A stretch of DNA of 64,000 nt from Eledone cirrhosa (Eukaryota). Positions 22,751-64,000 of the stretch are shown here, piece after piece. The DNA is taken from assembly GCA_964016885.1 (NCBI GenBank), contig OZ024740.1, positions 136,338,001 through 136,402,000 of the forward strand, written 5' to 3'. How positions within the stretch are numbered: the stretch's first letter is position 1; each line of letters begins with the position of its first letter. The notes beneath the pieces were generated by a model. That model was not told the DNA's origin. It searched no databases and saw nothing but the letters and a program-made list of their open reading frames with translations. The position numbers and the translations under genes are program-made.

Positions 22751-22759
22751 TTGTGTTCG

Positions 22760-32201: not shown

Positions 32202-32268
<67 letters not shown>
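28262..32268 (+). mobile_element. R4/Dong-like family B, full-length but with stops and frameshifts, (TAA)n tail
   Basis: ORF pieces 28424-29377, 29439-29873, 30018-30758 (GIFQGDSLSP, HLFYMDD), 30780-31745 (CRVC..H..C) and 31639-32058 (RLE). Confidence 0.92.
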
Positions 32269-36600: not shown

Positions 36601-36905
36601 AGGAGCAGGCCCTCAAAACGAAGTGGTTGAAACACCATATTTACAAGGATGAGGCTAGCCCACTGTGCAGGATCTGTGGAGAGAGAGAGGAGACTGTGGC
36701 TCACATTGTATCCGAGTGTAAACACCTAGCCCAGACTCACTATAAGGGCTGGAGACATGATGTGATGGGCAAGGTGATCCAGCATGCTTGCTGGGAACAG
36801 CAAGAACCCTCCGATACGTCCTGAATATCTGAGGCTGCAGGTAATGGCTTGATATTCATTTCAACAAACTTTCCCGTTAACTAACATCAATGAATGAGAC
36901 TCAAG

Positions 36906-36980
<75 letters not shown>
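33695..36980 (+). mobile_element. R4/Dong-like family A, copy 2; stops, a frameshift and a ~450 bp deletion of the RLE
   Basis: Highly similar to 22760-26360. The junction ggtgatcca|gcatgcttgc near 36781 skips the endonuclease. Confidence 0.92.
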
Positions 36981-37634: not shown

Positions 37635-38028
37635 CATATATACACACACATATACACACACACACATACGCATACATATAAATATACAAGCACACCCCAT
37701 ACATATAAACACAGCACAGACACAAAAGAGTATATACATACAAATACATATACACGCACACATAAATGCATACAACCACATACACACATATAGTATAAAC
37801 ATTTTTTTAAATAAAAACAAATATAAAAAACTATAAAGTTACATACACACACACGCATAAGTACGTACACACGCACTCACATATACACATATATATATAC
37901 ACATATATATAAATATATACATATATACACACATATACACACCTACACACATACACACACACACATATATATACATATATATATACACGCACACATATAC
38001 ATATATATATATATATATATACATACAT

Positions 38029-38106
<78 letters not shown>
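37520..38106. repeat. (TA)n/(CA)n compound microsatellite
   Basis: Directly visible. Confidence 0.9.
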
Positions 38107-38108
<2 letters not shown>

Positions 38109-38145
38109 CAAGTAAGTATGTTTTGAAACAGTGAGCAGGTTTGAA

Positions 38146-38396
38146 ATTAGAAAATAGAATAGCTTTCACCGTATTTTTGAGCCTGATAATGGGGTTTAGA
38201 ACCCTCAGATAAATGGAAAAAGATGAGCTACCATTACACCATTGGTGTAATGGTAGCACAGTGGTCTGGATAACCAAAGATGTGGGTTCGACTCCCATGT
38301 ACGTCAATACTCATCTTTTTCCATTTATCTGAGGGTTCTAAACCCCATTATCAGGCTAAAAAATTTCTTTAGTCAAAAATACGGTGAAAGCTATTC

Positions 38397-38407
<11 letters not shown>
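38146..38407. mobile_element. foldback structure containing a tRNA-derived head (38242-38305, + strand)
   Basis: Arms 38146-38227 and 38310-38407 are inverted. Nested hairpin at 38227-38257. A-box TGGTGTAATGG and B-box GGTTCGACTCC. Confidence 0.65.
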
Positions 38408-38428
<21 letters not shown>

Positions 38429-38502
38429 CACACAAAAGAAATACATAAAAATTTATTTTCAATTCTATGCATATATACATACATATACACACACATATAC
38501 AC

Positions 38503-38538
<36 letters not shown>

Positions 38539-39835
38539 TATATATATATATATATATATACAGTATATATATATATATGTAGGAGGTGGGTTTTATTGTA
38601 GCACAATAAAGCAATGCAAATATCGGATAAGTAGCACTCTACAATTTGTAGGACTGGAATATAAATAATATAAGATCAAAAGATGGTTAAAAGAGTTCCA
38701 AGTATTTTATTATTAAATCAACATATGAAAAATAAATTAAGATGGATGTATGAGATTGGGAAAAAGTGCGGGGGAGTGGAGGTAAGGAAGAGGAAGGAAT
38801 AAGAGTAAAGGATGGTGGGAGAGAAGTATAAGAAGGCAGGATAAGAGAGGAGGAGAAATGGGTAATAGAGAGAGAGCGATAGCCTTTACAACTGAGAAAA
38901 TATTGTCTCACAGAGAGAAATTAAAAAACCGCTGGAAGATAATAGATAATTTAAAAGATTTTGAAGTTAAAAGTTAATGAGGTTTATGCATGAAGAAAAA
39001 GGAATTAAGAATAGTATTAAATTAAGGTTTGTATATTGAAGGGTTTAATAATATGTGCGAAGAAAATAATTTATTAATATGTATTATTAAGATAAAAATA
39101 TTAATGATATTAAGGATATAATGTGAAAAGAAGGAGAAGAATAAATGAGTTATGAATTTAGAGGAATTAGTTAGGGTTTAAGTTTGTTTTTGTGTATTGT
39201 AATATGTATACGTAAATAGTATGTTTAAAATGAGCACGGAAGGAGAGAAGAAAAAAGAATGTTTAAGGAAGCAAATATCTAACGTCAAAAAGTAAATATG
39301 TTTACGAAATATTTTCTAATGGTAATATTATAATATATTAAAAAGAAATTAGTTAGGGTTTAAGTTTGTTTTTATGTATTGTAATATGTAAAAGTAAAAG
39401 TAAGTAGTGGGTTTAAAATGAGCAGGGAAGGAGAGAAGATAGAAGAAACATTTAAGGAAGAAAAAATATCTAACGTCAAAAAAGTTTATATGTTTACGGA
39501 AATCATCTAATGGTAATATTATAATGTATTAAAAAATATATATATAGTTTTAATGGCCAATAATATGAGGAGAGATGGAAGAATGGATAATGACAAACGG
39601 AGTAGTATAGAGAGAGAGGAGGGGGTAGAAGACTTAGGAAGTAGAGTGACAAACTGAGTTGGAGGGAGGGGTAGAGGTGGAAGGATTCCTTGATCAGTTT
39701 TGATTCGTAGACTTCATGTCGTCGATTTACTGCTATTTGCAGTATAGCAATATAAGGTTGCACTTACCAATGAAACGGTCGTAAATACCTGGATAAAATC
39801 CTTTTTTTAATGCTTACCTGTGTTTTCTCTTTTAT

Positions 39836-40113: not shown

Positions 40114-42712
40114 ATAATAATATATTTGAAGACTAAAATCCAAAGAGGGCTCGATAAAGATAAATATATATCAAATATATAAGAACCGTAGAGCAAATAT
40201 TTATTAAAATAACAGATTAAAGTTTAAGCAAAAAATCGCTGCTTTCACCCTTAACGGGATCTTCTGAAACTAACAAAGTCAATCTGTAAACGCAGAAGCG
40301 GATATTTCAAAAAACGTTGCAACCGGAGCAAGACAGGAAGACGATACTTTGGTTCGTGGAAACGTTCGCTATGCAAATAAGTAATGGTATAAACAAAACA
40401 TATACTTAACTCCCACATCAAGACGTAAAATATCCACGTATAGATCGTACTATCCGTTAGGGTATAACGTGGGGCTGTAATACAGGAAAGTTTTGTGCAA
40501 TTTATGTTTACAAGCCGAAATTGCCTCAGATTTTTTGTTTAAGATGTGGTCTGTGGCGTAGAGTATTTCCAGGGCCTCAGCGGCGCAGAAGTCACATGGT
40601 CTTTTATTTCCGTTATACGATCTAGCCCTAGCTAGGATCTCCCAGTGTAACTTAGATTGGGTGTGGTTGTCTTTTAGACTCCAGATATAAGCTGAAAGTG
40701 ACGTCATATTCCTTCTTAGAGGGTAACGAAAAGAATGGGTATGCATGTAAAGACGCTGCTTGAATCTATTGGCGGTTAACCCTATGTAGGCCCTACGGGA
40801 CGTGGGTGTTACAACCTTACATTTGTAGACAATGTTACTAGAGAGGCATTTCCCGGATAGGGGGCAATTAACCCGATTCCTACAATTACAGTTAGTACTA
40901 ACTACAGGGTTGCACGTGTACCTACGGCTAGGTAGTTTAGCTAAATTTGAAGCTGTGATGTTATGTGCAAGGTTAGGAGTCGTAGAGTAAGACATTTTAA
41001 TAGTATTTCTATTAAAAATTTTACTATATTTATGTGTAGGGGGAAATGCTTCGTAATAAGGGAAAGAAAGAACTTAGGTAATGGTGTGGCCACCTCCATA
41101 TTATATGGTGGGTTATACCAACAAATGCGACGGGATCTATTTCTTCTAGGTCTATTTTCGTACTCTGTATATGCTACCTTATCGACAAATCCACTTCGAG
41201 CAAGAGCTTCATTGTAATAAGTGGAATAGTCGTTGAAAATACGCTCGTTAGTGGAAAGACGGGAAAGCCTCAACGAAACGTTTTTTACCAGGTTCTTGGT
41301 TATGCTGGCAGGATGGTTGGAATGCTTACTTATATAATTAAGCGTATCATTCGGCTTTCTATACGGGTAATACAACCCCAATAAATTGAGGGTAACGTCG
41401 AGGTAATTAACGACCGAGAGATTGGCCTCAACCTGTATAGAGAGGTTGAAGTCTTTAAAGAAGGCTGTGAGTTCTTTTCTGAACCTGTCGCAAGCACGAG
41501 GTCCGCACTTAGTCATGGTCAAAAGACCATCGTCACGGTACAAACCACCGCCCGCGTGGGGAAATTCGTCCTTGATAGAGAAAAGAAGGAAAAGGCCGAT
41601 AAGATCAGTAACCTCCGCAGAATCACTGGCGCCCATACTCACGTCGAATGGGGTACTATTGGATTTTTTAATCCAAATAGAGTCGTCGAAATTAATCACC
41701 GACTTTCGGGCATTAAGGATGACATCAACTTCGAAATCCTTAACCACTGTGAGTGTTTTAGCGAAATTGATAGCTCTAAGGAGAAGTGGTAAAGTGATGG
41801 AGGAGTAGTAATTGTTGATGTCGAATTGGATAAAACGGCAATGTTCCTTGTTACATATGCCGTTGAACCAATCAATCACCGCGAAAGAATTGTTCCACAG
41901 TGCAAGAGGGGCCAAACTTCTAATTTCAGGTATAATTCTATCAAGAATCGTTTTACTAAGTCTACCTAAATCGGACTTCGTAGGATTAATAAGCCGAATA
42001 GAGGGGTTGTTCGGAAAATTGGATTTGTGATCCTTCAGGGTAAAGTGGGGAGAAATAGGGTCCAGAGGTTCGGTCCGGTCCAGGATGTTGAGATCGGATG
42101 TGATTTTAAACCCAGCATCGCTGATTTCATTGATGACGCACCGATTAGTTTTACGGTAATCCTTAGTTACAGCATTATGTAGTAGTTGATGGTAAGTACT
42201 GCGCTCCACTTGATATAGGTTTCCAGTTTTGTCGGAATGGACGTGCACGGCATTAGAATCCTTAATAGAACGAATTCTATTCTTCAGGTCCTGCTGGAAG
42301 GAATTGCTCCTATTCCGAAATTTGATACTCCGTATGAGTTCCAAGACATCATTTTCGAAGGGTAGCAATGCTGGGTTACACGGGAGGTTATTATAGGTTT
42401 TAAATCCAAATGTATCCTGTTTGTTGTCTGCTTTTCGCGGATTATCGAAATAAAAGGCACGCCAACGCAACCTTTTAATGAACGCGTCTGTTTTCAGTAT
42501 CAGGAGTTTTAGGTATGTGTTCCTGCTTGGTACGGGTATGTTCTTTGTAGAAATATTCAGATGTTGTTTCTGCATGATGAATATAAGTCAGTAGAGTGCT
42601 CAACCGAGGGAGCCAAATAGTAATAATAATAAATTTGAAGACTAAAATCCAAAGAGGGCTCGATAAGGATAAATATATATCAAATATATAAGAACCGTAG
42701 AGCAAATATTTA
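40108..42712 (-). mobile_element. Penelope-like element (Naiad-type), near complete, with ~95 bp direct terminal repeats
   Basis: RT 42575-40941 (DKT, RLINP, FDINNYY, MGASDS, YRDD, YLDVTL). One frameshift near 40990, then CNCRNRVNCPLSGKC, VYKC..YIG (GIY-YIG) and CDFC to 40450. Repeats at 40108-40204 and 42618-42712. Confidence 0.92.
40221..40271 (-). ncRNA. hammerhead-like motif in the PLE 3' pseudo-LTR (core CAGAAGA, U4>A variant)
   Basis: AGTTT-CAGAAGA-TCCC GTTAA GGGT-GAAAGCA..TGCTT|AAACT. Helices I, II and III all pair. Confidence 0.6.
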
Positions 42713-45669: not shown

Positions 45670-47219
45670 TCACGGCCCCTCTCAACGTTTGGTATCTGGA
45701 TGATGCTACGTTGGGCGGGCCCGTACGGACGGTCTGCCAAGACCTTCAATCGGTGATTCCTGCCCTGGCGGGAATCGGCCTCCAGGTCAACTCGGCCAAG
45801 TCGGAGGTGGTGAACGTCAGCCTCGCGGATGCGAGCTTTGCAGCCTCCGTCTTGGACGTGTGGTCCATTCTCCGCCAGGTTCAGGTGACCCCAAAGGGGA
45901 TGTCCTCATCCTCGGGTCACCGATCCACCCGCCGGCCATCCGCTCCACCATCAGGTCCAGGCTTCAACAGCTCCAGACTCTCACGAGCCGACTGGGCTTG
46001 ATTGACGGCCACCCAGCTCTCTTTCTGCTGAGGAACTGCTTCGCCATGCCGAAGCTCCTCTATACACTCCGCAGCGCTCCATGCTACACCCAGACATCTC
46101 TCCTCGCTGACCTCGATACTTGTATCCGAGCAGCAGCCGAGTGGATATGCAACGTCAAGTTTGACGACATAGGGTGGCAACAGGCCACTTTACTGGTCAG
46201 GTATGGCGGCCTAGGCCTCCGGTCCCCGATCTCACTAGCTTTGCCGGCGTATCTTTCGTCGGTAACCTCGTGCCGCGTCCTCGTCAGCAGGGTTCTTCAA
46301 AACACAACAGGACCCTCTGTGTTCAGAGAACGTGAGGCCGCCTGTGAGACGTGGGACCGGCTGGGACTTAGCCCAGTAGACGTCCCTCCTCCTTCTCCCC
46401 CTGTTGACGTCAAGTCCCCCCAACGCACTTGGGATGCCATCCACTGCAGCCTGGCCTCAGACAGGCTCACGCGCCAGCTCGACCAGCACCGCCTTGCTTG
46501 TTTTTGTGCGGCCTCCAAACCCCACAGTGGTGCCTGGCTCCATGCTCTGCCCTCCTTCTCCACTGGCACGCAGCTAGACAACCATAGCCTGCGCATCGGC
46601 GTTTCCCTGAGGCTCGGCCTCCGGCTCTGCCAACCACACCAATGTCGCTGCGGTTCCACCGTGGACTCTTTCGGCCTCCACTCGCTTTCCTGTCGCCACA
46701 GTGCCGGCCGCATTCCACGCCATACTGCCCTCAACGAGGTCATTAAGCATGGCTTGGACGCTGCAGGCTTCCCTTCCCAGCTCGATCCGGTGGGGCTGGA
46801 TCGAGGGGACGGCAAAATGCCAGATGGCATGACCATCTTCCCGTTCCGCGGTGGCAAACCCCTCGTCTGGGATTCCACTTGCACCGACACTTTGTGCAGC
46901 CGCAACCTGGTGCAGTCTGCGTCTGACCCAGGTTCTGCTGCACGTCGGGCTGAGGGGGCCAAACTCCTCAAATACCGGTCGCTCTCCGACAGGTTTGCGG
47001 TCGTTCCCCTGACAGTGGAAACTTCTGGTGTCCTCGGCTCCAGGGCTATCTCCTTGCTGGCCAGCTGCAGGTGTTAGCCCCGCGAGTTGGAGTGGCTTTT
47101 CCAGCGCGTCTCACTTGCCGTCCTCCGGGGAAACGCCTTCTCCATTCTGTCCGCCGGGGCTCTGGGTGGGCCCCATCGCGTACCAATACATTAGTTAAAT
47201 ACCATTCTTTCATCTGATA
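45670..47219 (+). mobile_element. CRE-clade non-LTR retrotransposon, 5'-truncated (RT C-terminal part, Cys/His finger and RLE)
   Basis: NVWYLDDAT, GLQVNSAKSE, ILGSPI, GGLGLR, CRCG..H..SC..RH, PDG..VWDSTC, KLLKY, VPLTVETSG. Frameshifts near 45895 and 47060. Confidence 0.88.
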
Positions 47220-49030: not shown

Positions 49031-49319
49031 AGATAGATAGATAGATAGATAGATAAGTTTCTTTTATTTGCCACTAGGGCATCAAAAGTGGGACAAGTAC
49101 AAAGGGGGGAGTTTACACAAAAAGGCGTCCTCAATAAGGAGGAGGCAATAACAAAATATAAAAATAAAATAAGATATAACAAAAAATAAAATTTTTAACA
49201 AAATCCTCAATAGAGAGGAGGCGCCTTGGGGGGTCGCACACACCCCCGAAAAAAGTGTGCAACCCTTCTCCTCAGGAGCACAGAGAAGGGGTGCTCCCTT
49301 GGTCTTTCATCTTCCTCAC

Positions 49320-52300
49320 CTATAGTCTGATGTAGAGTGAAGGCCCATTCACACGGGCCATTCTCGCCACTTTCACCCATCTTTCATAGAAACGGCTGGG
49401 GTGCAGCACCTCTCTCTCCATCCTGATCCTTCTTCCGAAATGATATCGGAAGAAACGGACCAGTTGTTGGCCAGAGAGAAAGGTGCCCGACCTCAGTCCT
49501 TTCAGACGCGTCCACCATACAACCTCTTTCGCCATGGCTATTACGCACAGAAACACCGCCTCTGCTTCATCTTTGAAGGGGGGAGGCGGCTTGATCATTA
49601 CAATAGACTCGGTGGTCAACCGGATCGGTCCCACCCTTGACAGCAGTTGTTCGACATAGCCCCACAGATCGGCTACGCCCGAGCAGTGTACTAATGCGTG
49701 TGCAACGGTTTCCTCGTCGCACACGCATCTGGGACAGATCTTTTTGGCGGGGTCCCTACCCGGGCGCCCGTGTCTGTAGAGCCTTTCTCGAACGGGTAAA
49801 GCCCCTCGGTAGCACTGCCAGGCCAGGGACTTCTGGAAGTTGTCCATAGGTCCCGGGCTGAATGTCCTACTGAACAGGCTGGCCAGTTCGTCCTCCTCCA
49901 TGTCTAGGGCTTCTCCGAGGGCGTCGTCGCACCTGCTGCGTACCAGCCCTCTATAGAATGTTGCGGTGGAGTCTCCACTGATAACCGGATCCGCCTGCCA
50001 GAGGGCGGTGAGCGCCTGGGCACACTCAGTGTGCCAGGCGCCCAGTTTTCTCGGTCTTTGCTTGACCCAGGATTGCAGCTCGGTGAGTGAGACGAGTCTG
50101 GGAAAGGTTCGTCTCACAAACGAGGCCCACACCGGTTGTCCGGTGAGGAATACGTAGAGGTGCCGTAGCCTTAATGCGTGTTTACGCATCATTAGCCACG
50201 GCATCCCCAGCCCTCCTTTCGAAGGGTGTTGACAGCAGATGGATCTCCTCACCATAGGAGCCCGCCTCTTCCAAAGGAATTGGAAGAGCGCGCGCTCCAT
50301 CTTGGTGAGGGTTTCCCTTGGGCAGGGCACTACGGTCAGGCGGTAGTAGATGACGGACGCTATGTAGGTGTTCGCCACCTCCGCCCGACCTTTCAGGGAT
50401 AGTTTGCAACTGGCCCACTTCTGGGTCAGTGCAAACACCCTGTTCGTAACCTCCGCCCAGTTTTTCTCCACCTGGAGGTCCGGTCCGAACCAGACCCCGA
50501 GCAACTTCACCGGGCCCTCCGTCCAGCGTCCGACGACGCTATCGGAGGGCATCGGTCTGCCCCTCCACGTGCCGAGTTGCAAACCGATCGACTTGTCCCG
50601 GTTCAGCTTAGCCCCTGTGAACTTTTCGTACTCCTCCAGTAAGGTGCCGACCGCCTCGATTTCGGAGGCCGTCGACACCATTACTGTCACGTCATCGGCG
50701 TAGGCCGACACCGCTTTCCGCAATCCCGGTTCCAAAGGGATGCCCTGCAACAACTCCAACTTCCGCAGTAGTGGCTCGAGAGTCAACACATACAGAAGGG
50801 AGGAGAGAGGGCACCCTTGTCGGATGGACCGCGCGATTTTGAACGGCTCCGAGAGGTAGCCGTTCACCTTGACCCTAGAGCAGATGCGGCTGCTGTGCAT
50901 AGCAGTGATCCAGCCCCTGAAAACGGGTCCGAAGCCTGCCGCCGCTAGCACCGCATCCAGGTAACCATGGTCGACCCTATCGAACGCCTTAGATTGATCC
51001 AAGTTGATCAGAGCCCCACCAAAGCCGGGTTCGTTCCCAACCCTCTCTATGATGTATCGCATAAGGTGGAGGTTGTCATGGATGGACCTGGACGGGATAG
51101 CGCATGTCTGCGCATCTCCCACCAGGTTGCCCACGACAAGCGCCAACCTCTTTGCTAGCACCTTGGCCAAAATCTGTAACTCTGTATTTAGCAGTGTTAT
51201 GGGCCTGAAGTTACTTATTTCGTCCCCCTTGTTCTCGTCCTTCCTCACTAGCGTGACTACGCCCTTGGTCACAGTACAGGGAATTCTCCCGTTCTGTTGC
51301 CAGTTGCAGTAGACCGCCTCGAGGAGATCGGGGAACAAGTCCGGCATAGCTAGATATAATTCGTAAGGAAGACCATCGAGACCCGGGGATTTGCGTTTGC
51401 CGCATTGGCTCAGCACGTCCTCTATCTCAGCGGCCGAAATCGGCTCCTCGCAGGACTTCGCCTCCCTGTCCGAGAGGCGCGGCAGGCCGTCGAGGTATGG
51501 ACCGAAGTCCACGTTCCCAACCGGCTCCCCGCCCCTCCCGAACAGTCGGGCAAAGTGCCTTTGAAAGGCCTCACACATCTGCTTAGGCTCAAGAATCGCC
51601 CGTCCATCCAGGTCTCGCAAAGACCGGATGGTGGATTTAGTTCCACTGTTGGCCTCTGTCACGCGGGCCCAGCTAACAGCTTTGGTCCCCTCGTTCCCTA
51701 GAGCACGTATTTTACTTCGGACAACGCAGCCTTCGTGCTTCGCGTCGAAAAACTGGCTCAAAGCCGTTCTCGACGCTAGCACTCTGGCCACGTCGCCGCT
51801 TCTAATTGCCTCTTCTACTCTATCTATTAGCTCCCTTTCCTTCCTATTCCTATCCGCAGCTAGAACCTTACTAAATTCTATCGAGACTACTCTAATCTCT
51901 CTCTTTAGAGATACCCACCACCTGCTGTTGACGATCGCTCCAGTCAACCGTTCCTTAACTAACGTACTAATCCGATTCCTGTAGGCTCTACTTGCCGGCA
52001 AGGACAAGTTGAGCTTCCAGTAACCGGGGCCCTGTCTATGAGTTCTGTCAAGGTTGACCATGCAGGTCACTAATTTGTGGTCTGAATAGCCAACAATGCG
52101 CATTTTTGGACAACTTAAAAAGTCCTTATCCTTAATTCTAACTAAGAACCTATCTAGGTACGACCTAGATGATCCGCTACGATTTGCCCAAGTCCAGGTT
52201 GGCGCAGTCGGAAAATCTAGTCGATATCTATCGGCCAGGTCAAATCGACCGATTAACCCTTTGAGGCTATTACACCCCTCTCTATCGGGGCAGGCCCCTA

Positions 52301-52757
52301 CGTAGTCCCAGCGTGCATCTAGGATACCATTCCAGTCCCCCACTAATAGCAAGGAGCGGGACGTCCCTAGAAAAGTCTCCAGACGATGGAAGAAGTCCGG
52401 CCGCATTGACCCGAAAGGGCCGTAGGCGGCTACCAACCTAAACGCTCCGCCTTTACCACTGCCAAGGTCCAGAACCACTAGTCGACCCTCCGGGTCCAAA
52501 TGTACCATCTGTGTTGCGAGACCCAGATGTTTTTGCAGCAGAACGACAACTCCACCCCCACCTCCGGGCTGACAGAGAGATGCGTGCATCTCAAAGTCAT
52601 CAAAGGCGGGGGCCAGCTGTCGCACGTTGCTGATCCGGGCCTCGCAAATAACCATCACATCTATACGTTGTGACCTGAGGTCATTTAGAAGCATTGCTTG
52701 CTTCCAAGTTGAGCCCAGGCCACGCGCATTTAAACAGCCTACTCTTAGCATAGCCAT
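49320..52757 (-). CDS. Tx1/L1 ORF2: APE endonuclease, reverse transcriptase and C-terminal Cys/His finger
   Basis: LNARGL, GDWN, YLDR, SDH; KSPGLDGL, DQSKAFD, RQGCPLS, YADD; CPRC..H...C. Confidence 0.93.
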   Translation of the reverse strand: MAMLRVGCLNARGLGSTWKQAMLLNDLRSQRIDVMVICEARISNVRQLAPAFDDFEMHASLCQPGGGGGVVVLLQKHLGLATQMVHLDPEGRLVVLDLGSGKGGAFRLVAAYGPFGSMRPDFFHRLETFLGTSRSLLLVGDWNGILDARWDYVGACPDREGCNSLKGLIGRFDLADRYRLDFPTAPTWTWANRSGSSRSYLDRFLVRIKDKDFLSCPKMRIVGYSDHKLVTCMVNLDRTHRQGPGYWKLNLSLPASRAYRNRISTLVKERLTGAIVNSRWWVSLKREIRVVSIEFSKVLAADRNRKERELIDRVEEAIRSGDVARVLASRTALSQFFDAKHEGCVVRSKIRALGNEGTKAVSWARVTEANSGTKSTIRSLRDLDGRAILEPKQMCEAFQRHFARLFGRGGEPVGNVDFGPYLDGLPRLSDREAKSCEEPISAAEIEDVLSQCGKRKSPGLDGLPYELYLAMPDLFPDLLEAVYCNWQQNGRIPCTVTKGVVTLVRKDENKGDEISNFRPITLLNTELQILAKVLAKRLALVVGNLVGDAQTCAIPSRSIHDNLHLMRYIIERVGNEPGFGGALINLDQSKAFDRVDHGYLDAVLAAAGFGPVFRGWITAMHSSRICSRVKVNGYLSEPFKIARSIRQGCPLSSLLYVLTLEPLLRKLELLQGIPLEPGLRKAVSAYADDVTVMVSTASEIEAVGTLLEEYEKFTGAKLNRDKSIGLQLGTWRGRPMPSDSVVGRWTEGPVKLLGVWFGPDLQVEKNWAEVTNRVFALTQKWASCKLSLKGRAEVANTYIASVIYYRLTVVPCPRETLTKMERALFQFLWKRRAPMVRRSICCQHPSKGGLGMPWLMMRKHALRLRHLYVFLTGQPVWASFVRRTFPRLVSLTELQSWVKQRPRKLGAWHTECAQALTALWQADPVISGDSTATFYRGLVRSRCDDALGEALDMEEDELASLFSRTFSPGPMDNFQKSLAWQCYRGALPVRERLYRHGRPGRDPAKKICPRCVCDEETVAHALVHCSGVADLWGYVEQLLSRVGPIRLTTESIVMIKPPPPFKDEAEAVFLCVIAMAKEVVWWTRLKGLRSGTFLSGQQLVRFFRYHFGRRIRMEREVLHPSRFYERWVKVARMARVNGPSLYIRL

Positions 52758-52781
52758 GTTGGTGGTGAAGAGAAAAGGCAC

Positions 52782-54569
52782 TTACCTCTCTGCGTCCCGG
52801 GTATCGGGCTGCACAATTTCCATTAGGGTGGGGGATGGATTGTTGGGTGGGGTGGTGGTTTGTGGAAGTGTGGGGGCATCAGTGTGTTGTGTGGTTGGGG
52901 AGCTTGGAGTTGTGAGGGTGTTTGGGGAGGGGGTGGGATAGTTTTTTAGGAGGACGCGGTTAATGGGCCCGACGCAGGGGGGACCCACGTCCTCTTTAAA
53001 ATTGTTTTTTAAAGTTTTATAGGTGTCCTGTGGGGCCTTAATCATTTTGAGGTGGGGGAAATCCCCTGCCTGGGTGAAGTTAGGCCCTTGTGTTTTTATT
53101 AGATTGTTGTTGTACACAATGTTTAACAGTTTTTTGTTTCTTGTATTTATGTATGTGTATGCATGTTTTTGTTTTTGTGTGGTGTTTTTTGTTTGCTGTT
53201 GTGAGCTCTTTTGTGTTGGTGTCAGTGTTATGTTTTGGGGAGGGGTTTTTTTCATTTGTGTGTCTGAGGTGTGTTTTCTTTTTTTTCTTTTGATTGTGTG
53301 GAAGTGCTCCTCCTCGTCTGACGACGAACTAGGGTCATCTTCCGCGTTGGAGGGGAGGGGTATATTTTCGGGTTGTGTTTGCGGTACGGGTGTTTTGGAA
53401 ATTGTTTTTGTTTTTTGAGTGGAGGGGATGGGTTGGACATTGTTTTGTTTTGGTTTGAGCTGTGGTGGTTGTTTTTGTAGTGGTAGTTGTGGTGATTGTG
53501 TTGGTTGTGCAGTTGTTGGTGGTGTAGGCAGGATTGGGGTTTTCTTATTAAGTTGGGGACAGACAGCCCTCAGGTGACCTCTGGTTCCGCAGAGGTAACA
53601 CGAGGGCCGTCTACCCTCAACGGTAATGTTGATGAAGGTTAGATCATCCAGTATGACGCGTTCAGGGATCTGGGCGATCCTTTCGGGCCTCATTTGAACT
53701 ACAAGTTCGAGGCTCGTTCCACTGAACGCGTCACCCGATGCCTTTCCCATGGACACCAGCATGTCATCCTCCAGGTCCAGAAAACCTGTCAAAACCCACC
53801 ATATGTCCATAATCGGCAGGATGGTGTGGATTTTTATTTTTTGTGTTCTTCTACCCATGTACGTAGGGTAGAAGGTGTATGCGGTGGATGTGATTGGTTT
53901 GATGGACAGTTTCACTGCTGTGTCCCTGTCCTTCATGAGAATGGATAGACTCCCGTAGAGTCTATCCTTCTGAATGAAGGTGATGTCCTTCATGACGTCT
54001 TTTAAAACCAGCTCTATCTCGCTCTGTGATGGTTGAGCTGGTTTTTTACTTTTGTTCGAGATTGTCCTAAACATGACCGTGTTTAGGAGTCTCTGGCTTT
54101 TTAGTTCCGGGGGGGAATGGATTGTGAATGAACCATTTTCCCCGTACACTATATATTTTTTCGCATCCGCCAGTAGCTCCTTCGCTTTTGTTATATCTAC
54201 TGGCAGATAGTCGAGGGTTTTCCTTGTCGTCTCGGCGAAGGAGAAATTTTGTTTGTTTGTGTTGTTGTTGTCGTTGGTGGTGTTGTTGTTATCATTGTTG
54301 TTGTTGTCACCGTTATTGGTCTTGTTGTTATTATTGTTATTGTTATTGGTGTTGTTTTCGTCCGTCGCATTGTTGTTGTTGTTGCTGTTGCTGCTGGTTC
54401 TTTGGGTTGTTGCCATGGCAACGTCAAGTTGTCGGTTAACAGGTGGAGAGAATTCTTCCTCTGGCTGACCTTTCTTCTTGACCTCTGCTACTGTGACAGT
54501 GGCAGGGGGAAGCTGTAAGTTCATCTTCCCCTTTCCTCCTTCGAATTTTGGTGAAGAAGCTTCGGCCAT
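52782..54569 (-). CDS. Tx1/L1 ORF1: Asn-rich N-terminus, CCHC zinc knuckle, Pro/Gln/Thr-rich linker, basic patch
   Basis: 595 aa; CYLCGTRGHLRAVC; KRKKRKH. Homologous to the E2 ORF1 pieces. Confidence 0.88.
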   Translation of the reverse strand: MAEASSPKFEGGKGKMNLQLPPATVTVAEVKKKGQPEEEFSPPVNRQLDVAMATTQRTSSNSNNNNNATDENNTNNNNNNNNKTNNGDNNNNDNNNTTNDNNNTNKQNFSFAETTRKTLDYLPVDITKAKELLADAKKYIVYGENGSFTIHSPPELKSQRLLNTVMFRTISNKSKKPAQPSQSEIELVLKDVMKDITFIQKDRLYGSLSILMKDRDTAVKLSIKPITSTAYTFYPTYMGRRTQKIKIHTILPIMDIWWVLTGFLDLEDDMLVSMGKASGDAFSGTSLELVVQMRPERIAQIPERVILDDLTFINITVEGRRPSCYLCGTRGHLRAVCPQLNKKTPILPTPPTTAQPTQSPQLPLQKQPPQLKPKQNNVQPIPSTQKTKTISKTPVPQTQPENIPLPSNAEDDPSSSSDEEEHFHTIKRKKRKHTSDTQMKKTPPQNITLTPTQKSSQQQTKNTTQKQKHAYTYINTRNKKLLNIVYNNNLIKTQGPNFTQAGDFPHLKMIKAPQDTYKTLKNNFKEDVGPPCVGPINRVLLKNYPTPSPNTLTTPSSPTTQHTDAPTLPQTTTPPNNPSPTLMEIVQPDTRDAER

Positions 54570-54780
54570 TTAAAAAAATATTGACTTTTCAACAAGAAAA
54601 AACTTTTTTTTTGTTTAACTATTTCGCCTAAAGGCGTAAAATATTTTGAGAGACTGACCAGATCAAAGTTTGACCTGGCAGTCCCTCTACAAAATGGTAC
54701 AAAAATTAAAGTTATCAGACAAGAATTTCTATAGAAATTTAAACAGAACTTACTCAGCAAGTTATACGCGTGTGTCCATC

Positions 54781-54858
<78 letters not shown>

Positions 54859-54870
54859 GGATATAGATAG

Positions 54871-54960
<90 letters not shown>
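54781..54960. repeat. (AGAT)~45 microsatellite: tail of E1b, abutting the 5' end of E1
   Basis: Directly visible. Confidence 0.95.
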
Positions 54961-55335
54961 TTCTTTATTAGCCACAAGGGCGCACAAGAAAAGGGGACAA
55001 TACAAATACATGCCGGGGATTTAACATACAGTCATGTAAAAAATATAAAACAAACAATTATAACAATCGAAATCCCCAATAGGGGGGAAGCGCCACAAAT
55101 GCGTTGTTTAATATCCCGTCGATAGAAAAACCCTCAACTTCAGGAGCGTGTTGTGCAGGTGCTCCTTTCTTCCTTTTGCTCTCTTCTTTAACCTACAGGC
55201 TTACAAACAGAGAAGGCCCAATCACTCGGGCCATTTTTGCCACTTTCACCCACCTTTCAGTAAATTTACTGGGGTTCAGTGCCTCTCTCTCCACTCTGAT
55301 TCTCCTTCTAAAGTGATACTTAAAGAAGGGAATCA
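54961..55335 (-). mobile_element. Tx1 element E1b, heavily 5'-truncated
   Basis: FFKYHFRRRIRVEREAL..ERWVKVAKMARVIGPSLFVSL*, followed by the 3' UTR and AATAAAGAA. Confidence 0.88.
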
Positions 55336-55344
55336 AGATAAAAG

Positions 55345-58300
55345 ATAAATAGATAGATAGATAGATATGTTTCTTTATTAGCCACAGGGGCACAAAAGAA
55401 GGGGACAAATACAAAGGGGGAAGTTTACATACAATAACGTGTAAATTATTATCACAAATGTAATTTAAAAGTTAATCGATTTTCCCCAATAGGGAGAGAC
55501 ATTTCATATAGGTAACACATACCCCCGAAAAAAATGTGCAACCCTCACCTCCAGGAGTACGAAGAGTTTGTACCCCTTTCCTCTCTTCCTCCTTTTCCTC
55601 AACCTACAAGCTGATATAGAGAGAAGGCCCATTCACTCGGGCCATTCTCGCAACTTTCACCCACCTTTCATAAAACTTGCTGGGGTACAGCACCTCTCTC
55701 CCCATCCTGATTCTTCTTCGAAAGTGGTATTTGAAAAAAAGAACCTGTTGTTGGCCGGAGAGAAAGGTGTCTGACCTCAGCCCTTTTAAACTCGTCCACC
55801 ATACAACCTCTCCTTAGTTTTTGAAGGAGGGTGGCGGTTTGATTATGACAATGGACTCGGTGGTCAACTGCGGTCCCACCCGCGACAATAGTCGTTCTAC
55901 ATAGTCCCACAGGTCGGTAACGCCCGGGCAGTGTACAAATGAGTGCGCGACGGTTTACTCGTCGCGCACGCATCTCGGACAAATCTTTTTCGAAGGGTCC
56001 CTGCCCGGGCGCCCGTGTCTGTAGAGTTTGTCTCGAACTGGTAGAGCTCCACGGTAGCACTGCCAGGCCAGGGACTTTTGGAAGTTGTCCATCGGTCCCG
56101 GGCGGAAGGTTCTACCGAACAGACTAACCAGTTCGTCTTCCTCTACGCCCAGAGTTTCTCCGAGCGCGTCGTCGCACTTGCTGCGGACCAACGCTCTATA
56201 GAATGACGAAGTGGAGTCTCCACTGATCGCCGGGTCCACCTGCCAGAGGGCTGTGAGCGCCTCAGCACATTCGATGTGCCAGTCGCCCATTTTCCTCGGT
56301 CTTTGCATGACCCAGGACTGCAGCTCGGTCAGCGAGACGAGTCCTGGGAATGCTCGCCTCACGAACAGGGCCCACACCGGTTGTCCGGTGAGGAATACGT
56401 GGAGGTGCCGCAGCCTGAGCGCGTGTTTGCGCATCGTCAGCCACGGCATCCCCAGCCATCCATTTGAAGGGTGTTGGCAGCAGATGGATCTTCTCACCAA
56501 AAGAGCCCACTTCTTCCAAAGGAATTGGAAGAGCGCGCGCTCCATTTTGGTGAGCTTTTTGGCTGGACAAGGCACGACAGTCAAGCGGTAGTAGATGACG
56601 GACGCTATAAAAGTGTTCGCCACCTCCGCTCGACCTTTCGAGGATAGTTTGCACTCGGTCCACTTCTGGGTGAGTGCAAACACCTTGGCCGTCACCTCGT
56701 TCCAGTTCTTCTCCACCTGGAGGTCCGGACCAAACCGGACCCCGAGCAGCTTTACCGGTCCTTCCGTCCAGCGTCCGACGACGCCATCAGAAGGCATCGG
56801 TTTGCCTCTCCACGATCCGAGTTACAAACCGATGGACTTGTCCCGGTTCAGCTTCGCTCCTGTGAACCTTTCGTATTCCTTCAGTAAGGTGCCAACTTCC
56901 TCGATTTGTGAGGTGCTCGACACCATTACTGTCACGTCGTCGGCGTAGGTCGACGCCGCTTTCCGCAGTCTCGGTTCCAGAGGGATGCCCTGCAATAGCT
57001 CCAACTTCCGCAGTAGTGGCACGAGAGTCAGTACGTACAGAAGGGAGGAGAGAGGGCATCCCTATCGAATGGATCGCGTGATATGGAACGGCTCTGCGAG
57101 GTAGCCGTTCACCTTGACCCTTGAGCAGATGTTGCTATTGTGCATTGCAGCAATCCAGCCCGGAACACGGGTCCGAAGCCTGCCGCCTCGAGCACCGCAT
57201 CCAGGTAACGATGGTCAACCCTATCGAAAGCCTTTGACTGATCCAAGTTGATCAAGGTTAACACCCTACGCTCTCTATGATGTATCGCATGAGGTGGAGG
57301 TTGTCGTGTATGGACCTGGTCGGGATTGCGCATGCCTGCACTTCTCCCACCAGGTTCTCAACGACAAGCGCCAGCCTCTTTGCCAACACCTTGGCCAAAA
57401 TCTGTGACTCTGTGTTTAGCAGAGTTATGGGCCGGAAGTTGGCTATGTCATCCCCCTTATTCTCGTCCTTCCTGACTAGTGTGTCTACGCCCCTGGTCAC
57501 AGAACTGGGAATTCTCCCGTTCTGCTGCCAGTTGCAGTAGACCGCTTCCAGGAGACCGGAGAACAAGTCCGGCATGGCTACGTAAAATTCGTAGCGTAGA
57601 CCGTCGAGACCTGGAGATTTGCGTTTGCCACATTGGCTCAGCATGTCCCCTATCTCAGCGGCTGAAATAGGGTTTTCGCAGAACTTCGCCTCGCTGTCCA
57701 AGAGTCACGGTAGTCCGTCGAGGTATGGACCGAAATCCATAGCCCCTCCCGGCGCGCCGCCCTGCCCGAACAGTTGAGCAAAGTGCCGCTGAAAGGCCGC
57801 ACACATCTGCTTCGGCTCACGTATCACGCGTCCATCTTGGTCCTTCAAAGACCGAATCGTCGACTTGTTGCCACTTTTTGCCTCCGTCACTCGGGTCCAG
57901 CTAACAGCTTTGGCTCCCTCGTTTCCCAGAGCACGTATTTTGCTTCTGACAACGCCGCCCTCGTGCTTTGTGTCGAAGAACTGGTCCAAGGCCGTTCTCG
58001 TTGCTAGCACGCTGGCTACGTTGCCACTTCTAATTGCCTCTTCTACTTTATCTACCAGTTCCTTCTTGGTTCTATTTCTATCTAACGCTAATTCTTTACT
58101 AAAAACTAACGAGTCTAATCTAACTGCCCTCTTGAGAGGTACCACCATCTGTTGTTGACAATGGCCCCTGTGAAGTGCTGTTTAACTAAAGTGCTAATCC
58201 GTCTACTGTAGGCTTTGCATGTCGGTAACGACAAGTTCAGCTTCCAGTAGCCGGGTCCTTGTCTATGGATTCTATCAAGGTTGACCACGCAGGTCACTAG

Positions 58301-61230
58301 TTTGTGATCTGAATAGGCAACCATGAATATTTGTGGACAGCTTAACATGTCCCTATCCTTATTTCTAACTAGAACCCTATCTAGGTACGATATAGATGTT
58401 CCGCTGCGATTAGTCCACGTCCACAGTGGCACAGTCGGAAAATCTAGTCGATATCTATCGGCCAGGTCAAATCGGCCGATTAACTGTTTGAGGCTGTTAC
58501 ACCCCCCTTTATCGAGACGTGCTCCTACATAGTCCCAACGTGCATCTAGGATTCTATTCCAGTCCCCCACTAAAAGCAAGGAGCGGGACGTTCCCAGAAA
58601 AGTCTCTAAATGTTTGAAGAAGTCTGGCTGCCGTGTCCCGGATGGGGCATATGCGGCCACCAGCCTGAAGGCTCCACCTTTATTACCGTCAAAGTCTAGG
58701 ACCACCAGTTGACCCTCCGGGTCCAGATGTACCGTCTGTGTTACGACGTCCAGGTGTTTCCGCAGCAAAACGGCAACCCCGCCCCCACCTCCCGGCTGAC
58801 AGAGAGATGCGTAGATCTCAAAGTCATCGAAGATGGGGACCACATGTCGCTCGCTGTGGATCCTGGACTCGCAAATGGCTACCACATCCATACTGTGCGA
58901 CCTGGGGTCGTTTAAGAGTTTGACCTGTTTCCAGGGCATCCCCAGGCCGCGTACGTTCACACATCCAACTCTTATATTGGCCATGTTGGTGCTGAAAAGT
59001 TAAAAGCAGAGGAAAAGAAATCACTCACCCTTCGTCTCCTGGGGACCAGGGTGCACGATTTCCATGGGGATGTTGGAGGGGTTGTCTGAGTGGGTGGTGG
59101 TTTCCGGCGGGGTCGGAACGGAGATGTTTGGTGGGGAGGGGTGGTAGGGGGTGTCTGGGGTGGGGAGACATTTGAGAAGGACGCGGTTAAGTGGTTTCAC
59201 GCAGGAATTCCCCACATCCTTTTCAAATGTTTCTTTTAGGGACCTATAAATTTGTATAGGGACCCTAATCAGTTTTAGGTTCAGTTTTTTGTTATTTTTA
59301 ATAGAGTGGACGAAAGTTTTCCCTTCGGTTTTCACCGAAGGGTTGTTCGTGATGGTCCCCATTAATGTTTTGTTTTCAGTCTTTATGTATGTGTAAGTGT
59401 AATTTTCTTGTGTTGTGTTTGTTTTTGTCTGTAGTTCTTGTGTGTGCTTTCGTTTTGTTGTAGGTATTTTGTTTTCAGGAGGTGGGGGTTTTGTCTGTGA
59501 TGTTTTTGTTGTTTGTGTTGGTGGTTGTATGTTTGTGGTAGTGTTTGCTGTTTTTTTGTTTTTGTAGTGTCTTTTCTTTCTTTTCGGGCGATGGGGTTCT
59601 CCCTCGTCTTCACTGGGTGATGACGAGATAGCCTCATCTGTTGTATCGTCTGTGTGATTTGGGAGGGGGTATGTCTTGGGGAGCTGTTGTGTCTGTATCT
59701 GATTTTGCAGTGGTTTTAGGTGGAGTGAGTTGGGTGGGACTGTGTTTGCAGTTTGGTTTTTTTTGTTATTTTTGTGTGTTGTTGTTGTGGTGGTGGTGGT
59801 GGTGGTGGTGGTGGTGGTGGTGGTGGTGGTGGTGGTGGTGGTGGTGGTGGTTGTGTTGTTGTATTGGGTGTCGGCAGTAGTGCCTTTTTTTAATGCAGTT
59901 AATTGAGGACAGGAAGCCCTAAGGTGACCAATGCTTAAACACTGATAACAGGAAGGCCGCCTACCCTCAACAGAAATGTTTATGTAGGAATTTCCATCCA
60001 GAGGCACACGTTGTGGTATTCTAGCTATCCGTTCTGGTCTCATTTGGACCAGAACTTCTAAGCTTGTACCGTTGAATATGCCACTGGAGGACTTTCCCAC
60101 CGAAATTACTGTATCTTCATCAAAATTGATGAAACCAGCAGATGTTTACAAAATTTATGAAACCACCAGATGTTTACATTTGGTGTGATATTTGTTACTT
60201 TTATTTTTTTAGTCCTTTTTCCCATATATGTAGGGGAAAAGGTGTAGAGGGGGGACACAATTGGCGACACAGAATATTTATGTGCCGTCAATTGGTCTTT
60301 CATTATTATTGATAAACTTCCGAAGAGTTTTCCCTTCTGTATGAAGGTAATGTCCTTCATGGAGTTTCTTAGAACCAGCTCAATTTCGTTTTGAGTTAAT
60401 TGAGCTGGTTTTCTGGTGGTATTTGAGATTGTCCTAAAAACTATAGTTTTCAGGGCACACGTTAAGACGGGCGTTGCGGAAAGTGAAAGTAAATTTTTTG
60501 ACAACAATGTGAATTTGTTTGTTGTTTTTTTTACAATGAAAGTTACGATACACACGCAATTGTATGGATTTCTTAATATATATATATATGTGTGGGTGTG
60601 TATATGTGTGTATATATATGTGTCAGTATGTATATATATATGTGTGTTTGTATATATATATATGTGTTTGTGTCATCATCATCGTTTAACGTATATCTAA
60701 AGAAAAAATAATCACACACGCAATACTAATTAACACCATATCACTAAAGAGACCTGTTGTAAATAAACAAACAAATTCACAGTGTACACACATATATACA
60801 CACATATACACACCCACACATATATATATATTAAGAAATCCATACAATTGCGTGCGTATCGTAACTTTCACGGTAAAAAAAAAACAAAAACAAATTCACA
60901 TTGTTGTCAAAAAATTTACTTTCACTTTCCGCAACGCCCGTCTTAACGTATGCCGTTTTCAGGACAGTGTCTCTACGCAATTCTTGGGGAGAAGTGATGC
61001 TAAAAGCGCCATTCTCCCCAACAGTTATATATTGCTTGGCATCTCTTAGCAATTATCCGGCATTAGAGATGTCAATCTGTGTATATAGTTCTGTCTTTTG
61101 GACAGTTTGTGCAAACGAAACTTTTTTTTCCTTGTTTGTGGAGTTGTTCTTGTTGGTGTTGTCATTACTGTTGCTGCTGTTGGTGTTGTTGTCATCATGT
61201 TTGCTGTTGTTGTTGTTGTCATTGTTGTCG

Positions 61231-61302
<72 letters not shown>

Positions 61303-61698
61303 TTGTAGTTCTCAATTGCTTGATTTGTGGTTGTGGAATTCATTTGTGAAGTTGTGTTTTTCACTTGTTAAATATTATTTTGTGCCGTATGTGTTTCCAT
61401 ACTTTTGTTTTGGTGTGATTTATCTCGGTCACTACCTGTTGCCATAGTGACATTCATTTCAACGCTCCCATTTCCATTTTTGGCGGGAAGCGTTTTAATG
61501 TTGACATTCATAGTTAAACAAGTTGTTATAAATTTTTATATGAACATTTTTATGAAAATTTCAATGACTCACCCACTGACAGAGGGTCAATCTATATAGT
61601 GGTATATTTTTTTAAAGCAATAATTTTTTTTTTTTATAAATAAAAGACAAAAACTTACCAGCGTGACTGGCACACAACTTCCTCTATTTCAGACAGAA
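55345..61698 (-). mobile_element. Tx1 element E2, full length, decayed; ORF1 interrupted by a MITE
   Basis: ORF1 pieces ~61511-59021 (CYQCLSIGHLRASC). ORF2 from ATG 58984 to TAG 55604 with frameshifts (GDWN, SDH, YADD). Confidence 0.92.
60454..60954. mobile_element. MITE with ~160 bp TIRs and an 8 bp TSD (Merlin-like)
   Basis: TIRs GGCACACGTTAAGACGGGCGTTGCGG.. and ..CCGCAACGCCCGTCTTAACGTATGCC. TSD GTTTTCAG at 60446-60453 and 60955-60962. Excision restores ORF1 DTVLKTIVFRTIS. Confidence 0.88.
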
Positions 61699-64000
61699 GA
61701 TAGATATGTTTCTTTATTAACCACAGGGGCACAAAATAGATATTTCTTTTTATTAGCCACAGGAGCACAAAAGAAAGGGACAAATACAAAGAGGGAAGTT
61801 TACATACAATAAAAACATGTAAAATATTATCACAAATACAATTTAAAAGTTAATCGATTTTCCCCAATAGGGGGAGACATTACATATGGGTAACACATAC
61901 CCCCGAAAAAAATGTGCAACACTCATCTCCAGGAGTACGAAGAGTTTGTACCCTTTCCTCTCCTCCTCTTTTTCCTCAACCTACAGGCTGATATAGAGAG
62001 TAGGCCCATTCACTCGGGCCATTCTCGCCACTTTCACCCACCTTTCATAAAACTTGCTGGGGTACAGCACCTCTCTCTCCATCCTGATTCTTCTTCCAAA
62101 GTGGTATTTGAAAAAAAGAATCAGTTGTTGGCCGGAGAGAAAGGTGTCTAACCTCAGCCCTTTCAACCTTGTCCACCATACAACCTCTTTCGCCATAGCT
62201 ATCATACAAAGGAAAACCGCCTCTCCTTCGTGTTTGAATGAGGGTGGCGGTTTGATCATGACAATGAACTCGGTGGTCAACCGGATTGGTCCCACCCGCG
62301 ACAATAGTCGTTCTACATAGCCCCACAGGTCGGGAACGCCCAGGCAGTGTATGAATGCGTGCGCGACGGCCTCTTCGTCTCGCACGCACCTCGGATAGAT
62401 CTTTTTCGGGATGCCGTGGCTGACGATCGTAAACACGCGCTCAGGTTCGGCATCTCTACGTATTCCTCACCGCACAACCGGTGTGGGCCCCGTTCGTGAG
62501 GCGAGCATTCCCAGGACTCGTTTCGCTGACCGAGCCGCAGTCCTGAGTCAAGCAAAGACCGAGGAATATGGGCGACTGGCCGGGCGCCCATGTCTGTAGA
62601 GCTTGTCTCGAACTGGTAGAGCTCCTCGGAAGCACTGCCAGGCCAGGGACTTTTGGAAGTTGTCCATCGGTCCCGGGCGGAAGGTCCTACCGAACAGACT
62701 GGCCAGTTCGTCTTCCTATACACCTAGAGTTTCTCCGAGCGCATCGTCGCACTTGCTGCGGATCAACCCTCTATAGAATGACGAAGTGGAGTCTCCACTG
62801 ATCGCCGGGTCCGCCTGCCAGAGAGCTGTGACCGCCTGAGCACACTCGATGTGCCAGTCGCCCATATTCCTCGGTCTTTGTTTGACTCAGGACTGCGGCT
62901 CGGTCAGCGAGACGAGTCGTGGGAATGCTCGCCTCACGAACGGGGCTCCGCCGGTTGTCCGGTGAGGAATACATAGAGATGCCGAAGCCTGAGCGCGTGT
63001 TTGCGATCGTCAGCCACGGCATCGCCAGCCCTCCGTTGGAAGGGTGTTGGCAGCAGATGGATCTTCTCACCAAAGGAGCCCGCCTCCTCCAAAAAAATTG
63101 GAAGAGCGCGCGCTCCATTTTGGTGAGCGTTTTGGCTGGACAAGGAACGAGGTCAAGCGGTAGTAGATGGCGGACGCTATAAAAGTGTTCGCCACCTCCG
63201 CTCGACCTTCGCAAACACCTTGGCCGTCACCTCGTTCCAGTTTTTCTCCACCTGGAGGTCCAGACCAAACCAGACCCCGAGCAGCTTTACCTGTCCTTCC
63301 GTCCAGCGTCCGACGACGCCATCAGAAGGCATCGGTTTGCCTCTCCACGATCCGAGTTGCAAACCGATGGATTTGTCCCGGTTCAGCTTCGTTCCTGTGA
63401 ACCTTTCATATTCCTTCAGTAAGGTGCCGACTTCCTCGATTTGCGAGGCGCTCGACACCATTACTGTCACGTCGTCGGCGTAGGTCGACGCCGCTTTCCG
63501 CAGTCCCGGTTCCAGAGGGATGCCCTGCAATAGATCCAACTTCCGCAGTAGTGGCTCGAGAGTCAGTACGTACAGAAGGGAGGAGAGAGGGCATCCCTGT
63601 CGAATGGACCGCGTGATATAGAACAGCTCCGAGAGGTAGCCGTTCACCTTGACCCTTGAGCAGATGCATTGCAGCCATCCAGCCCCTGAACACGGGTACG
63701 AAGCCTGCAGCCTCGAGCACTGCATCCAGGTAACGATGGTCAACCCTATCGAAAGCCTTAGACTGATCCAAGTTGATCAGGGCCCCACCGAAGCCGGGTT
63801 TACACCCTACCCTCTCTATGATGTATCGCATGAGGTGGAGGTTGTCGTGTATGGACCTGGTCGGGATTGCGTATGTCTGCACTTCTCTCACCAGGTTCTC
63901 AACGACAAGCGCCAGCTTCTTTGCCAACACCTTAGCCAAAATCTGTGACTCTGTGTTTAGCAGAGTTATGGGCCGGAAGTTGGCTATGTCATCCCCCTTA
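61699..64000 (-). mobile_element. Tx1 element E3 (RT and 3' end; continues beyond window), decayed
   Basis: DQSKAFD, RQGCPLS, YADD. ORF2 stop at 61981. Close relative of E2, with a duplicated 3' terminus at 61699-61775. Confidence 0.9.

Follow-up and report, generated by a model that had tools for sequence, protein, structure and literature searches.

The window, a 64,000-nt stretch of the Eledone cirrhosa genome (OZ024740.1:136,338,001-136,402,000; positions are counted from its first letter), carries an array of three retrotransposons on the minus strand, here called E1, E2 and E3, whose 5' untranslated regions (UTRs) hold a short segment shaped like an intron. In E1, an (ATCT)n target tract (54781..54960) precedes a 29-nt leader, the putative exon 1 (54754..54782; most family copies begin 4 nt further 5'). 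The 67-nt intron-shaped segment follows (54687..54753), with a donor GTAAGT at 54753 (D1) and an acceptor TAG at 54687 (A1), and a predicted hairpin begins at the acceptor G (54649..54687; -27.9 kcal/mol, z=-7.0). The intact open reading frame 1 (ORF1; 52782..54569, 595 aa) has a CX2CX4HX4C knuckle in its translation and AATAAA at 53838 and 53100, and its stop is overlapped by a second donor, AG|GTAAGT (D2; 52780..52785). A pyrimidine-rich spacer (52758..52779) leads to the intact ORF2 (49320..52757, 1145 aa), which encodes an APE endonuclease, a reverse transcriptase (RT) and a zf-RVT domain and ends in a TAG whose AG is a candidate acceptor (A3). The 3' UTR (49031..49319) has AATAAA at 49068 and is followed by (ATCT)n.

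E2 repeats this order, with a 40-nt leader (61659..61698), a 67-nt GTAAGT..TAG segment (61592..61658) and a hairpin 3' of the acceptor (61566..61590) that is shorter here, having lost 9 nt that most family copies keep. Its ORF1 (59021..61511) is broken by an early stop and a palindromic insertion at about 60454-60954, its D2 is G|GTGAGT in phase 1, two codons ahead of the ORF1 stop (59023..59028), and its ORF2 (55604..58984) is frameshifted. Only the 3' part of E3 is in the window (61740..64000); its 5' end, just past the window (copy L091, 4672-4605, minus strand), has a 68-nt GTAAGT..TAG segment and a hairpin. A scan of microsatellite flanks for further 5' ends returned only E3 among the matches listed.

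The elements are young L1/Tx1-type long interspersed nuclear elements (LINEs) inserted in microsatellites, as judged from domain structure and target habit, on which the Tx1 label rests. E1 ORF2 matches PF03372 (APE endonuclease), PF00078 (RT) and PF13966 (zf-RVT; weak, below the curated cut-off), and its best relative of solved structure is human L1 ORF2p (E=3e-48). An ORF2 with an N-terminal APE domain, RT and a C-terminal zinc-binding region, a separate upstream ORF1, frequent 5' truncation, a 3' AATAAA and no long terminal repeats (LTRs) are features of the L1 group. A preference for microsatellites is a Tx1 habit, and nearly all of 30 E1 copies have (ATCT)n or an AT-rich repeat at the 5' junction; in families 7-11 the target is (ATT)n. 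No named Tx1 reference was found among 100 ORF2 homologues or their clusters. Homologues of ORF2 in other organisms are 39-69% identical, and a search with E1 ORF1 found no homologue. An APE endonuclease and two ORFs set these elements apart from Penelope-like elements, which have a GIY-YIG endonuclease, a single ORF and terminal repeats. The E1 family is very young, and its copies are often complete: the exact leader 23-mer occurs in 386 of them, the common 5' end is sharp, more than 140 have an ORF1 core that is 99-100% identical, and hundreds of copies are 98-99% identical. All copy counts refer to the 3.0-Gb genome, and every conservation figure was obtained within this one genome.

On the minus strand, the segment reads ..CTGA|GTAAGT..TTTTGTAG|AGGG in E1 (54753 to 54687) and ..GCTG|GTAAGT..TATAG|ATTG in E2 (61658 to 61592). 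A preliminary description of this DNA had proposed a conserved 67-nt intron here. Its coordinates, strand, boundaries and lengths were exact, the leaders, given there as about 27 and 40 nt, measure 29 and 40 nt, and the segment is indeed intron-shaped, with a donor kept far beyond E1 and E2. The two segments had been called barely alignable; in fact they agree at 35/67 positions without gaps, their interiors are identical at 27/59 positions (P=0.04 against a shuffle mean of 20.8), and a collinear alignment runs from leader to hairpins across the 5' UTRs of 11 types. Because the E1 and E2 segments are homologous and not independent, their equal length is mostly inheritance. Nor do the 67-nt length and the acceptor hold as a rule for the clade. 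Among 30 fetched copies of the E2 family, the segment is 67 nt long in 15 of the 29 that can be measured (range 61-69; the 30th has an imprecise deletion across the acceptor), other lineages span 59-70 nt, and the acceptor is movable or absent. A branch-point candidate, ctgataac, proposed for E1, is retained neither in the sister type U1b nor in E2; YTRAY before the AG is absent from E2 and differs in position between E1 and U1b. (U1b, U4-U12 and the like denote 5' UTR types of the element families and are distinct from the U1 small nuclear ribonucleoprotein, snRNP.)

Within E1 the signals exceed chance. A crude pyrimidine score of our own making puts the AG at 54687 joint top among the 373 AGs of the sense strand, and D1 ranks about 12th of 281 GT sites by complementarity to U1. 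GTRAGT hexamers occur only twice on the 5.7-kb sense strand, at D1 and at D2. This is the number that chance predicts, so the signal lies in position and not in count. The E1 segment also contains a perfect 16-bp palindrome, AATTTCTATAGAAATT (54725-54740, minus strand), which is kept in the E1 and U1b types and absent from the others.

We then sampled the wider family with a degenerate pattern for the start of ORF2, which is independent of the splice motifs and excludes the E1 type. It matched 5,183 places; the copies studied are the first 100 listed, all on one contig (C1). They fall into 14 clusters, mostly 56-88% identical. A 5' UTR type could be given to 68 copies, the remaining 32 being truncated elements or without a type. 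A consensus donor (GTRAGN or GTAGGT) is present in 59 of the 68 classified 5' ends; the other nine comprise one weak donor, one GC, two ends that are not covered and five copies of type U12 without a donor. The variants GTAAGT, GTGAGT, GTAGGT and GTAAGC/A follow the U2-type donor consensus. Besides the donor, the best-kept motif is GACGTGT-like and lies in the leader.

Two layouts were recognized. In the first (U1-U4), 24-42 nt separate the donor from the 5' end, and the hairpin has a TAG at its foot, 67-70 nt from the donor; a candidate YAG acceptor with a pyrimidine tract at this distance is present in E1, E2, E3, U1b and U4. In the second (U5-U9), the old donor has decayed, a new one lies about 33 nt further downstream and the first TAG is lost. 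The next YAG is then at 59-62 nt, inside a hairpin arm (U5, U7-U9), with YTRAC 14-20 nt ahead of this second AG, within the stem. On the ORF1 tree the shifted donor takes four changes, and a single origin is still compatible. Pairing is predicted for the first 8 nt after the AG in the E1-E3 and U4 types and for the YAG itself in U5, U7, U9 and U10. Family 4, which is young and accounts for 19 of the 100 copies, has GTGAGT in 19/19, but CAA stands at the aligned second acceptor in 18/19; in the copy examined, 108 nt separate the donor from the next YAG. The (ATT)n-targeting type U10 combines GTAAGT with only an AAG, at 60 nt. By these alignments the putative donor is the near-invariant part of the segment; the candidate acceptor is usually at an intron-like distance, is movable and is once missing.

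The 5' UTR/ORF1 types are shuffled against the ORF2 types, with an E1-like UTR on family-5 ORF2 and a U10 UTR on family-7/8 ORF2 (copies L175, L167, L162 and L138 against E1; L200 and L202 against L190; L188). This suggests recombination near the end of ORF1 or within the 5' part. In family 4 (L123-L136), the 5' flanks are tandem AT-rich units of about 75 nt instead of (ATCT)n, which may mark another target or a 5' end in repeated form, and the family forms 5.8-kb tandem arrays (C1, 4.238-4.256 Mb).

Spliced genomic copies were sought at the 5' ends. The E1 leader 23-mer is followed by G at 386 places, never by another base and never by G and a base other than T; GT followed by a base other than A occurs at three places, which are one point variant and two 5-nt duplications. 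Spliced E1-type copies thus number 0/386, a bound of about 0.8% by the rule of three that applies to exact matches and that a downstream exon starting with GTA would escape. There were likewise none among 27 E2-type copies, 20 of which have the exact GTAAGT, and none in the 100 listed of 275 family-2 copies. All the copies counted derive from unspliced RNA, as the preliminary description had supposed. The segment is a module inherited within an L1/Tx1-type LINE clade, and no genomic copy examined has it spliced out. Assembled contigs of five sequencing runs, possibly of DNA, showed no joint on 54430-54785 and, over the whole element, none at D1, A1, D2 or A3 among 15 listed of 236, and one contig (X1) from a run that is possibly DNA crosses the E1 segment unspliced; these are not evidence either way.

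Human L1 gives this absence its meaning. There, RNA spliced within the 5' UTR is described as making both proteins and as being copied once in cis, and spliced copies make up 116 of 6,609 full-length elements, or 1.8% (PMC5860796). Since spliced human L1 RNA leaves copies, frequent splicing here should have done so too. Either ORF2-bearing RNA is rarely spliced in these elements, or templates are sorted. The two systems are alike in being L1-type and in having a functional-looking but mostly unused 5' UTR donor, for which the human work proposes structural sequestration; they differ in that the human skipped part is about 525 nt long and holds promoter sites (PMC5860796), whereas here the segment is no larger than a minimal intron and the search for spliced copies returned none.

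We favour, with a probability of roughly 0.45, the reading that the donor is mainly a landing site for the U1 snRNP in a mostly retained, hairpin-flanked, intron-shaped 5' UTR module, and not the start of a routinely removed intron. U1 would bind the nascent RNA about 30-70 nt from its 5' end and would shield the A-rich ORF1 from premature cleavage at AATAAA, boost transcription, or both. Each of the 9 elements scanned has AATAAA in it or beside it, and in 8 of them a hexamer falls in ORF1, no more than 1.9 kb ahead of the ORF2 start. With an acceptor that is weak, missing or held in a stem, RNA that bears ORF2 would seldom undergo excision. The unspliced RNA would make ORF2p and, through cis-preference, would also be the RNA that is copied, so that no special template-sorting step would be needed. 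At D2, U1 would have another landing site, which a long-range duplex would later cover. The conserved donor beside a labile acceptor, the lack of spliced copies, the structure predicted around the acceptor and the way in which donors vary along the U2-type consensus speak for this reading. A precedent exists in the Arabidopsis retroelement EVD, for which U1 is reported to act independently of splicing (PMC5580714).

Several observations weigh against it. Where an AG exists, its distance from the donor stays at 59-70 nt even after the donor shift; such constancy resembles a minimal-intron constraint and speaks for some true excision. In E1, no acceptor scores higher than A1. U1 binding would not be universal, as the five U12 copies lack a consensus donor and that of U11 is weak. 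An anti-donor hairpin, in which the leader would hide the donor, did not reach significance (combined P=0.07; 2/13 types below 0.1). Finally, few AATAAA lie downstream of D2, so shielding from early polyadenylation explains D2 poorly.

D2 is itself a conserved feature. Scored as the most donor-like site no more than 65 nt from the ORF2 ATG, it is GTAAGT in 44, GTAGGT in 24 and GTGAGT in 23 of the 100 copies (91/100); the chance of such a donor is about 0.04 per 60-nt window. It is preceded by an exonic AG or GG in 98/100 and occurs in all three codon phases (2, where it overlaps the stop, 1 and 0), and is therefore kept as a nucleotide signal and not as a stop. At the other end of ORF2, 3' ends were fetched for 60 of the 100 copies and 49 ORF2 ends were located; the stop is TAG in 46 of them. 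A join from D2 to the ORF2 stop would end ORF1 within two codons in 8/12 lineages (permutation P=0.025; the lineages are not independent), and in E1 the join from D2 to A3 would leave ORF1p identical.

These data bear on the strongest rival, which we consider possible although less probable than U1 landing: coupled alternative splicing of the copia type. RNA engaged by the spliceosome would be stripped of the 5' UTR intron and also of all of ORF2 (D2 to A3), giving an ORF1-only mRNA, and RNA that escapes would remain unspliced, make ORF2p and be copied in cis. As the spliced ORF1-only RNA would lack ORF2 and could not be copied in cis, splicing could be abundant and yet leave no genomic copies. 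D2, kept as nucleotides in every phase, the TAG at the ORF2 ends and the prompt stop of the joined frame all agree with this, and at D1 its best support is the intron-like 59-70-nt spacing that survives the donor shift. There is also a precedent in the shGAG RNA of the Ty1-copia element EVD of Arabidopsis, where a donor close to the end of the structural ORF is reported to be similarly conserved (PMC5580714). On the other side, A3 is a middling acceptor in E1 (56th of 373 AGs), the phase does not match in 4/12 lineages, and no ORF1-only retrocopy was found among eight non-consensus matches (seven E1-type, one family-4).

A predicted duplex weighs further against coupled splicing. The spacer and ORF2 start (52757-52800) are predicted to pair with the ORF2 stop region (49275-49350, both on the minus strand), with the ATG opposite the TAG. 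The pairing is predicted in all 11 lineages shown and co-varies between them; the energy is -58.6 kcal/mol with own partners and -46.5 kcal/mol with swapped ones, and the own partner ranks first in 6/12 and is best in E1. The predicted duplex, which covers D2 in several lineages, accounts for the pyrimidine spacer, for the TAG and for much of the agreement in phase, with no need of splicing. EVD differs in being an LTR element in which the short RNA was shown experimentally and is coupled to early polyadenylation, whereas the LINE here offers sequence signals. The EVD report also ascribes to U1 both the short mRNA and, in a splicing-independent role, the guarding of full-length RNA from early termination (PMC5580714). 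Were the coupled model correct, this would be a LINE clade with retrovirus- or copia-like splicing, in which a minimal 5' UTR intron and an ORF2-spanning intron give an ORF1-only mRNA. RNA structure, namely the hairpin at the first acceptor and a zipper over the second donor and acceptor, would keep an unspliced pool for ORF2p and template, so that sense-strand introns would survive target-primed reverse transcription indefinitely. We put this forward tentatively.

Other splicing schemes were rejected or disfavoured. A mini-intron fusing ORF1 to ORF2 is disfavoured because most families lack an AG before the ORF2 ATG: none of the 19 family-4 copies has an AG between D2 and the ATG, and 15 of 16 family-2 copies and both family-1 copies also lack one. 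In the youngest families the next in-frame AG would give an intron of only 39-42 nt. The same lack of an AG argues against an ORF2-only mRNA made by skipping from D1 to ORF2. A third donor, at the ORF2 stop, is not conserved.

The model of the preliminary description, in which the 67-nt intron is efficiently spliced from a bicistronic mRNA and a separate unspliced pool is chosen as template, with the intron kept for promoter or for export and translation functions, appears unlikely. The model is Penelope-like: Penelope of Drosophila virilis has a 75-bp 5' UTR intron that lies 46 bp from the start and is removed from most transcripts (PMC2377424). The layout here is close to this, E1 has a good donor and the best acceptor, and between sister types the segment interior diverges faster (45/58 identical) than the downstream hairpin (55/58). 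The model would nevertheless need template sorting that overrides cis-preference with a leakage below about 1% (0/386), and family 4 has no acceptor at the aligned position. Nor does a promoter within the intron explain the lack of spliced copies, because loss of the promoter sterilises daughter copies yet leaves them visible, as in human L1. The interior is AT-rich and poorly kept, and the GACGTGT-like motif sits in the leader, which splicing would retain; this suggests that promoter signals lie outside the segment. Even in Penelope the intron is described as needed for protein and dispensable for transcription (PMC2377424). Penelope and Chlamys-3_cRei (PMC8557442) do share with E1 and E2 a short GT-AG segment, tens of nucleotides from the 5' end, that is kept in the genome. 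They are GIY-YIG elements with terminal repeats, and their splicing was reported from RT-PCR or long reads (PMC2377424, PMC8557442); the clade of E1 and E2 consists of two-ORF LINEs with APE and RT, in which splicing is putative, an acceptor is not found in every type and ORF1 has a second donor at its end.

Least probable, in our estimation, is a motif unrelated to the spliceosome, such as a promoter element in the DNA or a protein site with a chance resemblance to a donor, with the AG as a by-product of the hairpin. Downstream promoter elements sit at about +30, where D1 lies in half of the types; several candidate acceptors are paired in stems, so that pairing alone could preserve them, and no spliced molecule was seen. 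However, the motif shifts position by about 33 nt from one lineage to another, varies as donors do, and recurs 2 kb away at the end of ORF1 with an exonic AG or GG in 98/100. Two further ideas were discarded. Intron mimicry to evade the human silencing hub (HUSH) does not fit a report in which short engineered spliced stuffers gave no protection and the 5' splice site was dispensable (PMC8770142), and a switch through an upstream ORF does not fit E1, where the leader ATG opens five codons whether spliced or unspliced, or most other types, which lack a leader ATG.

Splice sites in non-LTR elements have been described before, in the spliced human L1 copies known as SpIREs (PMC5860796) and in the antisense introns of TART (PMC1636488, which also cites Tad). 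The TART introns, 53-104 nt long, resemble our segment in size and in their spacing in divergent non-LTR UTRs; they are antisense, so retrotransposition spares them, whereas the segment here is on the sense strand (PMC1636488). Kibi, Koshi and crocodilian Tx1 elements are likewise described with two ORFs, APE, insertion in simple repeats and tandem arrays; their targets differ from the (ATCT)n and (ATT)n used here, and the sections of that report dealing with them mention no intron (PMC4494074). A repeat annotation of Octopus vulgaris reports recently active L1-Tx1 families, and its main text contains nothing on introns or splicing (PMC13282606). A literature search whose coverage excluded subscription journals and Repbase Reports turned up no account of a feature of this kind in Tx1 elements.

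The window holds other repeats. The MITE-like insertion (miniature inverted-repeat transposable element) in ORF1 of E2 (60454-60954) is a palindrome of about 500 bp, and a similar one lies at 37993-38580. ORF2 of E3 contains a 172-nt inverted duplication (62408-63023). Two 92%-identical copies of another RT element, on the plus strand and without an APE match, occupy 21618-26431 and 31462-36980, and pieces of a third copy lie at 28424-31745; the element is R2/Dong-like by look. Two ORFs without Pfam matches, at 40941-42575 and 46046-47077, resemble a Penelope-type RT and the C-terminal nuclease region of a retroelement, respectively.

The feature described here is real at the level of sequence, its splicing is putative, and its first interpretation was partly a misreading. 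LINEs are regarded as free of introns, since passage through RNA ought to remove any on the sense strand; the exception cited is that of Penelope-like elements. With junction coordinates known exactly and hundreds of copies at 98-99% identity, both U1 protection and a splicing-set protein ratio could be tested directly by RNA-seq. If the signals act as proposed, a young, intact, high-copy LINE clade would carry donors at two fixed places with no spliced copies, and would either recruit U1 to protect its RNA or set the ratio of ORF1p to ORF2p by splicing.

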